In this document: positions 879-1,085 of the stretch, in pieces | Layout of the letters: each line of letters begins with the position of its first letter | How positions within the stretch are numbered: position 1 is the first letter of the stretch | DNA from: Escherichia coli | GTDB lineage: Bacteria > Pseudomonadota > Gammaproteobacteria > Enterobacterales > Enterobacteriaceae | Length of the DNA stretch: 1,085 bases | NCBI RefSeq assembly: GCF_003334815.1 | Contig: NZ_QOWO01000108.1 | Strand: one strand, 5' to 3' | Notes under the pieces: model-generated | Told to the model about the DNA's origin: nothing | Databases searched by the model: none | Seen by the model: only the letters and a program-made list of their open reading frames with translations | Made by a program: the position numbers and the translations under genes

Positions 879-1085
879 CCAGAGGCGGTCGAACTCCGCC
901 TTCGCAAAATAAGCGGAAGCCTGGCGAAGAATATCGTTACTGCGGCGCAGTTCACGATTTTCACGTTCCAGCTCTTTCAGACGCTGACGTTCAGCGCTGG
1001 TGAGCCCACCATCACCGCCCCCGGTATCCCGCTCATGCTGGCGAACCCAGACACGCAGAGTCTCCGGCGTACAGCCAATCTTTGG
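870..1085 (-). CDS. IS3-family transposase OrfA (DNA-binding / leucine-zipper subunit), 5'-partial: 71 codons plus TGA stop at 870-872; start codon beyond position 1085
   Basis: Hand translation of the minus strand from 1085 down to 870: [72 protein letters not shown] heptad repeat L-x6-L-x6-L-x6-F falls at codons 969-971, 948-950, 927-929 and 906-908, consistent with the leucine-zipper multimerisation region of IS3-family OrfA. The frame is open across the whole segment to the window edge. It is missing from the supplied ORF track because it has no start codon inside the window. Confidence 0.9.

Follow-up and report, generated by a model that had tools for sequence, protein, structure and literature searches.

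The GC-rich inverted repeat at positions 883 to 901 of the window (by which we mean the whole stretch of 1,085 nucleotides of Escherichia coli DNA analyzed here) is in all probability, at roughly 0.9, the first hairpin (SL1) of an apical loop-internal loop (ALIL) pseudoknot that stimulates frameshifting on the minus-strand transcript of an IS629/IS1203/IS3411-type element. Going by the comparative data, SL1 would be the 3' stimulator of a U-run shift site located upstream of it. We observed homology to the ALIL family, the corresponding anatomy, conservation, covariation in the second hairpin (SL2) and in the kissing helix between the SL1 loop and the SL2 internal loop, and a universal U_UUY motif 5 nucleotides (nt) upstream. 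The ALIL element is already known: it was described in 2008, has its own Rfam family and is automatically annotated by RefSeq on DNA identical to ours. The present analysis corrects the reading of the hairpin, whose partners appear to be the U run 5 nt upstream and a loop about 55 nt downstream and not the adjoining A run, and it supplies independent covariation support for the loop-internal loop pairing from 77 divergent copies.

We propose that a ribosome translating orfA would arrive at UAU UUU (909-906) with SL1 positioned 4 to 5 nt ahead, at the mRNA entrance. Six base pairs would hold the 7-nt apical loop of SL1 to the internal loop of SL2, which follows 45 nt later, in a compound SL1-SL2 structure expected to withstand unwinding. 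A fraction of the ribosomes would then slip back by one base on U_UUU and proceed in the orfB frame, yielding the OrfA-OrfB fusion transposase. According to the review by Atkins et al. (2016), an ALIL-type structure stimulates -1 frameshifting in IS3411 (Mazauric et al. 2008), and we infer that the copy in the window functions like the IS3411 structure.

The insertion sequence and its hairpin

The genes in the window are read from the minus strand, as judged from the reading-frame translation, and the frame of orfB is -1 relative to that of orfA (Table 1). The window DNA is 100% identical to a copy on the E. coli 042 plasmid pAA. It has matches at roughly 30,000 places in the E. coli genome collection, and of 5426 complete E. 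coli genomes, 4223 contain a match. Proteins named "IS3 family transposase" or "IS3-like element IS629 family transposase", with Pfam rve domains, share 100% identity with the OrfB part, and DNA copies at 98.8% identity to the window carry the IS1203 family name. The window is a member of the IS3 family of the IS629/IS1203/IS3411 type, present in reverse complement.

Table 1. Features of the window that bear on the frameshift region, with the evidence on which each is placed
Feature	Positions	Strand	Basis or remark
orfA, 3' part, truncated by the window edge	870..1085	minus	Translation; N-terminal match to 404-aa IS3/IS629-family transposases
orfB, DDE transposase core, running beyond the window end	1..873	minus	Translation; 100% identity to IS3/IS629-family transposases
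AUGA overlap: orfB AUG at 873-871, orfA stop UGA at 872-870	870..873	minus	Translation
Whole ALIL frameshift pseudoknot region	799..915	minus	Rfam RF01497 cmscan and RefSeq feature
Slip motif U_UUU, orfA frame UAU UUU GCG; with G905, the "TTTTG/T4G" motif	906..909	minus	Present in 77 of 77 relatives
SL1: stem 901-896/888-883, 7-nt apical loop 895-889 (AGUUCGA)	883..901	minus	Sequence, Rfam structure line, folding, conservation
SL1 loop nucleotides GUUCGA, in the pseudoknot helix with the SL2 internal loop	889..894	minus	Complementarity, covariation
A6 run, second candidate -1 slip site, UGG AAA AAA UGA	873..878	minus	In the 45-nt SL1-SL2 linker; lineage-specific
SL2: outer stem 838-834/803-799, internal loop 833-828 (UCGGAC)	799..838	minus	Rfam structure line, covariation
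SL2 inner stems 827-826/805-804 and 824-818/813-807, loop 817-814	within 799..838	minus	Rfam structure line

On the plus strand, AGGCGG (883-888) and CCGCCT (896-901) form a perfect 6-bp inverted repeat with a 7-nt spacer (889-895). The minus-strand transcript reads 5'-UAUUUUGCGA-AGGCGG-AGUUCGA-CCGCCU-CUGG-AAAAAA-UGAUG-3', the upstream flank being UAUUUU-GCGA, and 4 nt (882-879) separate the 3' end of the hairpin from the A6 run (878-873). The first-pass annotation had given the repeat, its spacer and its distance from the A run correctly to the base, and translation bears out its statement that codons of the AKAEFDRL segment of orfA underlie the repeat. The pairing of SL1 is not lengthened directly on either side, A902/C882 and A889/A895 being unpaired.

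As a bare pattern, this repeat is statistically unremarkable. The window contains six perfect 6-bp inverted repeats with loops of 3 to 10 nt, versus 2.15 ± 1.76 in dinucleotide shuffles, and a single one with at least 5 G/C, versus 0.44 ± 0.72, with 33% of the shuffles holding at least one repeat of the latter kind. The folding energy of SL1 is -10.5 kcal/mol, with a z-score of only -1.2; the whole 117-nt ALIL region also has a folding z-score of -1.2, and its centroid structure retains SL1 alone. Since the repeat counts and the folding z-scores are unremarkable, the case for SL1 rests on homology and conservation and not on thermodynamics.

The inverted repeat can be lengthened imperfectly to 14 nt (875-888/896-909, 79% complementary). 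The UUUU of the upstream slip site (909-906) is complementary to AAAA in the A run (878-875), and a 44-nt local fold that pairs both has an energy of -13.5 kcal/mol. Without an A run, as in 74 of the 77 relatives, this extension is impossible, and given this absence and the 117-nt centroid, we judge the extended U4:A4 helix to be incidental or lineage-specific.

The probable ALIL pseudoknot and its conservation

A cmscan search matched Rfam family RF01497 (ALIL) at 915..799 on the minus strand with 120.2 bits and an E value of 1.8e-32, the gathering score being 50, and the match is full length (model positions 1-117 of 117). SL1 corresponds to the first hairpin of the model, at positions 16-20 and 28-32. 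RefSeq places a feature named "AL1L pseudoknot" on the identical pAA copy with exactly the same span as the Rfam match, within a transposase CDS marked "programmed frameshift". The first-pass annotation, which considered a role of the repeat in -1 frameshifting, was right in that the repeat lies in the orfA/orfB overlap of an IS3-family element and belongs to its programmed -1 frameshift signal. The element lies in this overlap on the coding (minus) strand, and the anatomy of RF01497 is further represented by a 5' shifty motif in the orfA frame, by the 7-nt loop of SL1 and by an internal loop on the 5' side of SL2, SL1 and SL2 being 44 to 45 nt apart. The kissing pairs are G894-C828, U893-A829, U892-G830, C891-G831, G890-C832 and A889-U833, that is, five Watson-Crick pairs and one G-U. 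A weak ALIL match of 13 bits was also obtained on the plus strand; we rejected it as a second element, for it reflects the palindromic nature of SL1.

Relatives for comparative analysis were gathered through OrfB protein similarity only, so as not to select on the RNA itself. The best 120 OrfB homologues are near-identical E. coli copies only, which are uninformative for covariation; they were the source of the two annotated fusion proteins discussed below. An alignment of 21 proteins sharing 44 to 65% identity, from a library clustered at 50%, served as a query and was scanned against one genome per species, yielding 80 loci at 56 to 66% identity in alpha-, beta-, and gammaproteobacteria, Acidobacteria, and other phyla. 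Four divergent plasmid copies, from Salmonella, Klebsiella variicola, Pseudochrobactrum, and Acinetobacter, were added, and all four score above the Rfam threshold. Together with the window, these make 85 sources, from which 77 distinct rows were analyzed. The covariance model was built from five sequences with nested helices only, so that the loop-internal loop helix lies outside the model. It located the element in 83 of the 85 sources, always about 42 nt ahead of the start of the OrfB match, and in the other two the upstream DNA is missing.

The complementarity of the SL1 loop to the SL2 internal loop has been kept through evolution in these 77 rows. Across the distinct relatives, 98.5% of the cells of the kissing helix are paired, and double changes occur at two of its six pairs: two rows have A-U for G-C and three have U-A for C-G, and the wobble intermediates G-U and U-G are also seen. 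The window carries a variant of this helix, with the loop AGUUCGA and the internal loop UCGGAC versus AGCUCGA and UCGAGC in the majority, which places U-A and U-G where most relatives have C-G and U-A. The two helices of SL2, comprising 14 pairs, are 96.1% and 87.6% paired, and double-sided changes are found at 6 of the 14. Sliding the 3' partners by 1 to 3 columns lowered the overall pairing from 90.9% to 30-43%, and none of 500 shuffles attained the observed values.

Two copies, L087 from S. boydii and L090 from E. coli JJ1897, carry substitutions in the internal loop (GCGGAC and UCAGAC, at the equivalents of positions 833 and 831, respectively), each of which breaks one kissing pair. These may be decaying or down-tuned copies.

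The five core pairs of SL1 (GGCGG/CCGCC) are each paired in 92 to 100% of the 77 relatives. No double-sided changes were found among these pairs in the 77 rows, only G-U wobbles and a few mismatches, and since the core pairs are nearly invariant, they cannot speak for or against the stem. The sixth pair, A901-U883, is a standard pair in just 11 of the 77 relatives, mainly enterobacterial copies. An equivalent hairpin in IS6110 (sequence quoted in the Methods of PMC5896891) folds as GGCCG-AGCUCGAC-CGGCC, which we treat as a lead only; its stem sequence is different, its loop of 8 nt has the same GCUCGA core, and UCGAG occurs farther downstream. This hairpin suggests that the SL1 stem may covary at greater evolutionary distance.

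Conservation in the region peaks at SL1, where 14 of the 17 columns are at least 95% invariant, and no position of GGCGGAGCUCGACCGCC falls below 94% conservation in the 77 relatives, whose element spans 46 to 71% G+C. Mean entropy is 0.13 bits in SL1, versus 1.12 bits in the adjoining segment, which is likewise translated in two frames. The two frames over SL1 encode ...AEFDR... in OrfA and ...GGVRPP... in OrfAB, and protein constraint from this double translation could account for part of the conservation. Because the adjoining two-frame segment is highly variable, the conservation of SL1 goes beyond what dual coding alone would give. A conservation analysis across related IS copies was one of the checks suggested at the outset and, as run here, it finds SL1 kept in 77 distinct relatives.

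Candidate slip sites on both sides of SL1

The motif U_UUY is found in all 77 rows (model positions 7-10), as UUUU in 38 and as UUUC in 39, and it ends 4 nt before A901, or 5 nt before the conserved SL1 stem. U_UUC and U_UUU both belong to the tetramers that a downstream pseudoknot renders shifty in E. coli. The A run occurs in just 3 of the 77 distinct relatives, all of them enterobacterial. Since U_UUY is present in 77 of 77 relatives versus 3 of 77 for the A run, we assign SL1 to the U run and not primarily to the A run, contrary to the first-pass annotation, which had tied the repeat to the A run downstream.

Where the frames are joined differs between the two annotated fusion proteins. 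In the generic NCBI fusion protein (P0041), orfA and orfB meet at UUUUG (...AYF/GEGGV...), whereas in the NCBI "IS629 family" fusion protein (P0063) they meet at the A run (...WKK/LMPLL...). The two models therefore put the hairpin between two candidate -1 slip sites: SL1 is 3' of the ancestral, universally conserved site and 5' of the lineage-specific A run. In view of the A run downstream of SL1 and of the NCBI IS629 model, the U-run site is not the sole slip site in play. A study concerned with slip sites and their products, and not with the hairpin as such, reportedly found TTTTG and AAAAT to be functional -1 signals leading to OrfAB' and OrfAB. The window resembles the element of that study in its OrfB and in having, with UUUUG and the A run, two candidate -1 sites, one for each of the NCBI fusion models.

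Several observations concern the A run and the orfA stop in close and more distant copies. In variants at 96 to 97% identity (L088, L089 and L090; E. coli, Shigella, Klebsiella), the A run reads AAAAAG and is followed by UGA. The resulting UGG AAA AAG UGA contains the highly shifty A_AAG motif, and the orfB start is GUG in place of AUG. UGA occupies the model position of the orfA stop in 58 rows, and the overlapping codon in the -1 frame is AUG, GUG, CUG or UUG in most. In a Klebsiella variicola plasmid copy (L003) and in one further row, an in-frame UAG (UUU GCG UAG; model positions 14-16, equivalent to 902-900) that overlaps the beginning of SL1 stops orfA one codon past the U-run slip site. 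Because of this upstream in-frame UAG, the A6 run that such copies retain is unreachable in the orfA frame.

It is conceivable, but in our estimation improbable, that SL1 is bifunctional in the enterobacterial IS629/IS1203/IS3411 lineage only, serving both as the ALIL 3' stimulator of the ancestral U_UUU and, from the 5' side, as a modulator of an A-run site that is a new acquisition. The latter may be A6-UGA or AAAAAG-UGA, 4 nt downstream of SL1, and may be modulated either through GGAG, acting as a Shine-Dalgarno (SD)-like stimulator at 14 to 15 nt, or through a refolding attenuator hairpin. If SL1 did play both parts, it would set the ratio of two fusion proteins, and the UUUU/AAAA complementarity would be part of the design. 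How the slip sites on either side of SL1 are balanced matters for the regulation of an insertion sequence that is a driver of genome rearrangement in E. coli O157:H7 and Shigella.

Alternative explanations and related systems

The purine cluster AAGG/GGAG (902-894) could also pair with the anti-SD tail and stimulate -1 slippage at the A run, as the first-pass annotation had envisaged. The NCBI IS629-family model, which sets the shift at the A run, and an estimate in the review that about 56% of IS elements have SD-like stimulators fit this proposal. The crude anti-SD duplex energy of the cluster, -7.2 kcal/mol, is close to the -7.3 kcal/mol of dnaX AGGGAG, but the match is interrupted by an internal mismatch (AAGG-C-GGAG). 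GGAG (897-894) is located 14 to 15 nt 5' of the A run, at or past the upper limit of the 9 to 14 nt quoted for -1 sites. Furthermore, GGAG is present in 73 of the 77 relatives and the A run in 3 of the 77: the A run is not needed to explain GGAG, and the cluster and the run show no co-variation. We consider it unlikely that stimulation of the A run is the purpose of the cluster; given its spacing and its anti-SD energy, the cluster may at best have a secondary effect on the A site, confined to this lineage and added to the ALIL role. The 5' SD-like stimulators of dnaX and IS911 resemble the window in having a GGAG-containing purine cluster upstream of an A-rich slip site. The cluster in the window differs from them in its spacing, in being conserved with or without an A run, and in forming part of a conserved stem and loop.

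Somewhat less likely again is the proposal, by analogy, that SL1 acts as a 5' attenuator, refolding behind the ribosome 4 nt upstream of the A run, damping slippage there and so setting the ratio of the products. The review describes a natural stem-loop in SARS-CoV that attenuates frameshifting at a -1 site lying 4 nt 3' of it, and the distance of SL1 from the A run is likewise exactly 4 nt. However, the analogy is purely with a eukaryotic viral system, whose mechanism the same review calls "still mysterious", and the A run that would be attenuated is missing from most family members. Any effect of SL1 on the A site could equally well be negative.

The purine cluster had also been proposed to serve orfB initiation, that is, to be a ribosome-binding site for independent synthesis of OrfB from the AUG at 873-871, a role that we regard as very unlikely. 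AGG- and GGAG-like sequences do lie upstream of this in-frame AUG, but the end of GGAG is 20 nt before it, well outside normal SD spacing, and half of GGAG is tied up in the stem of SL1. If OrfB is made at all, termination and reinitiation may instead be coupled, as the conserved AUGA/GUGA stop-start overlap suggests.

Codon choice in the AKAEFDRL segment might have produced the repeat by coincidence, with no role for it at the RNA level; this reading had been put forward on an equal footing and is hardly tenable. Six-bp repeats are indeed common by chance, as given by the shuffle counts above, and the SL1 region is protein-coding in two frames. Against this stand the 120-bit Rfam match, the conservation of the GGCGGAGCUCGACCGCC positions next to a variable dual-coding neighbor, and the compensatory changes between the SL1 loop and the SL2 internal loop, and we reject the coincidence. 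Finally, the GC-rich hairpin, with a T run on one flank and an A run on the other, might act at the level of DNA or transcription, for instance as a protein-binding palindrome or an intrinsic terminator, but the likelihood of this is negligible, given that its conserved partner is found on the same RNA strand at a distance of 45 nt and that some of the pairs are G-U, which is specific to RNA. The terminator was rejected for want of a U tract after the stem in either orientation, and a terminator scan of positions 780 to 1000 on both strands returned no terminator-like site.

The preferred reading, an ALIL 3' stimulator of the U run, also finds its closest counterparts among known frameshift signals. 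The ALIL pseudoknot is reported in IS3411 "and at least 27 other IS elements" (review by Atkins et al. 2016; Mazauric et al. 2008, J Biol Chem 283:20421), with SL2 at 44 to 104 nt 3' of SL1 according to the review. Like the window, the IS3411-type element is placed in the orfA/orfB overlap and, a few nt downstream of the shift site, has an SL1 of the form GGCGG-A G[C/U]UCGA-CCGCC, together with a 6-nt internal loop in SL2 complementary to the SL1 loop, and an SL1-SL2 distance of 44 to 45 nt. Nothing essential is different, the window being distinguished by the enterobacterial kissing variant and by an extra A-U pair at the base of SL1.

The H-type pseudoknot of IS3 and the three-way junction of IS911 resemble ALIL in being RNA structures of the orfA/orfB overlap that follow a shifty motif after a few nt, and these 3' stimulators likewise raise -1 slippage to give the fusion transposase. 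In the window, by contrast, SL1 pairs with the internal loop of another hairpin, 45 nt distant, and not with the sequence directly following its stem. Apical loops that pair with internal or bulge loops also strengthen the frameshift-proximal hairpin in BYDV, RCNMV and PEMV2 (a luteovirus, a dianthovirus and an umbravirus). There, however, the roles are inverted, the proximal stem bearing the internal loop and the distant hairpin the apical loop; the partners are kilobases apart versus 45 nt in the window, and there is no sequence homology.

Other repeats in the element lie within orfB. A perfect 7-bp inverted repeat, CGTATAC/GTATACG, is found at 675-681/697-703 with a 15-nt spacer, and a palindrome-like pair of 20 nt at 4-23/24-43 is 75% complementary; neither has an Rfam match. 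Among the transposase proteins, a variant of 436 aa from E. coli (P0007) carries an internal tandem duplication of 32 residues in its OrfB part.
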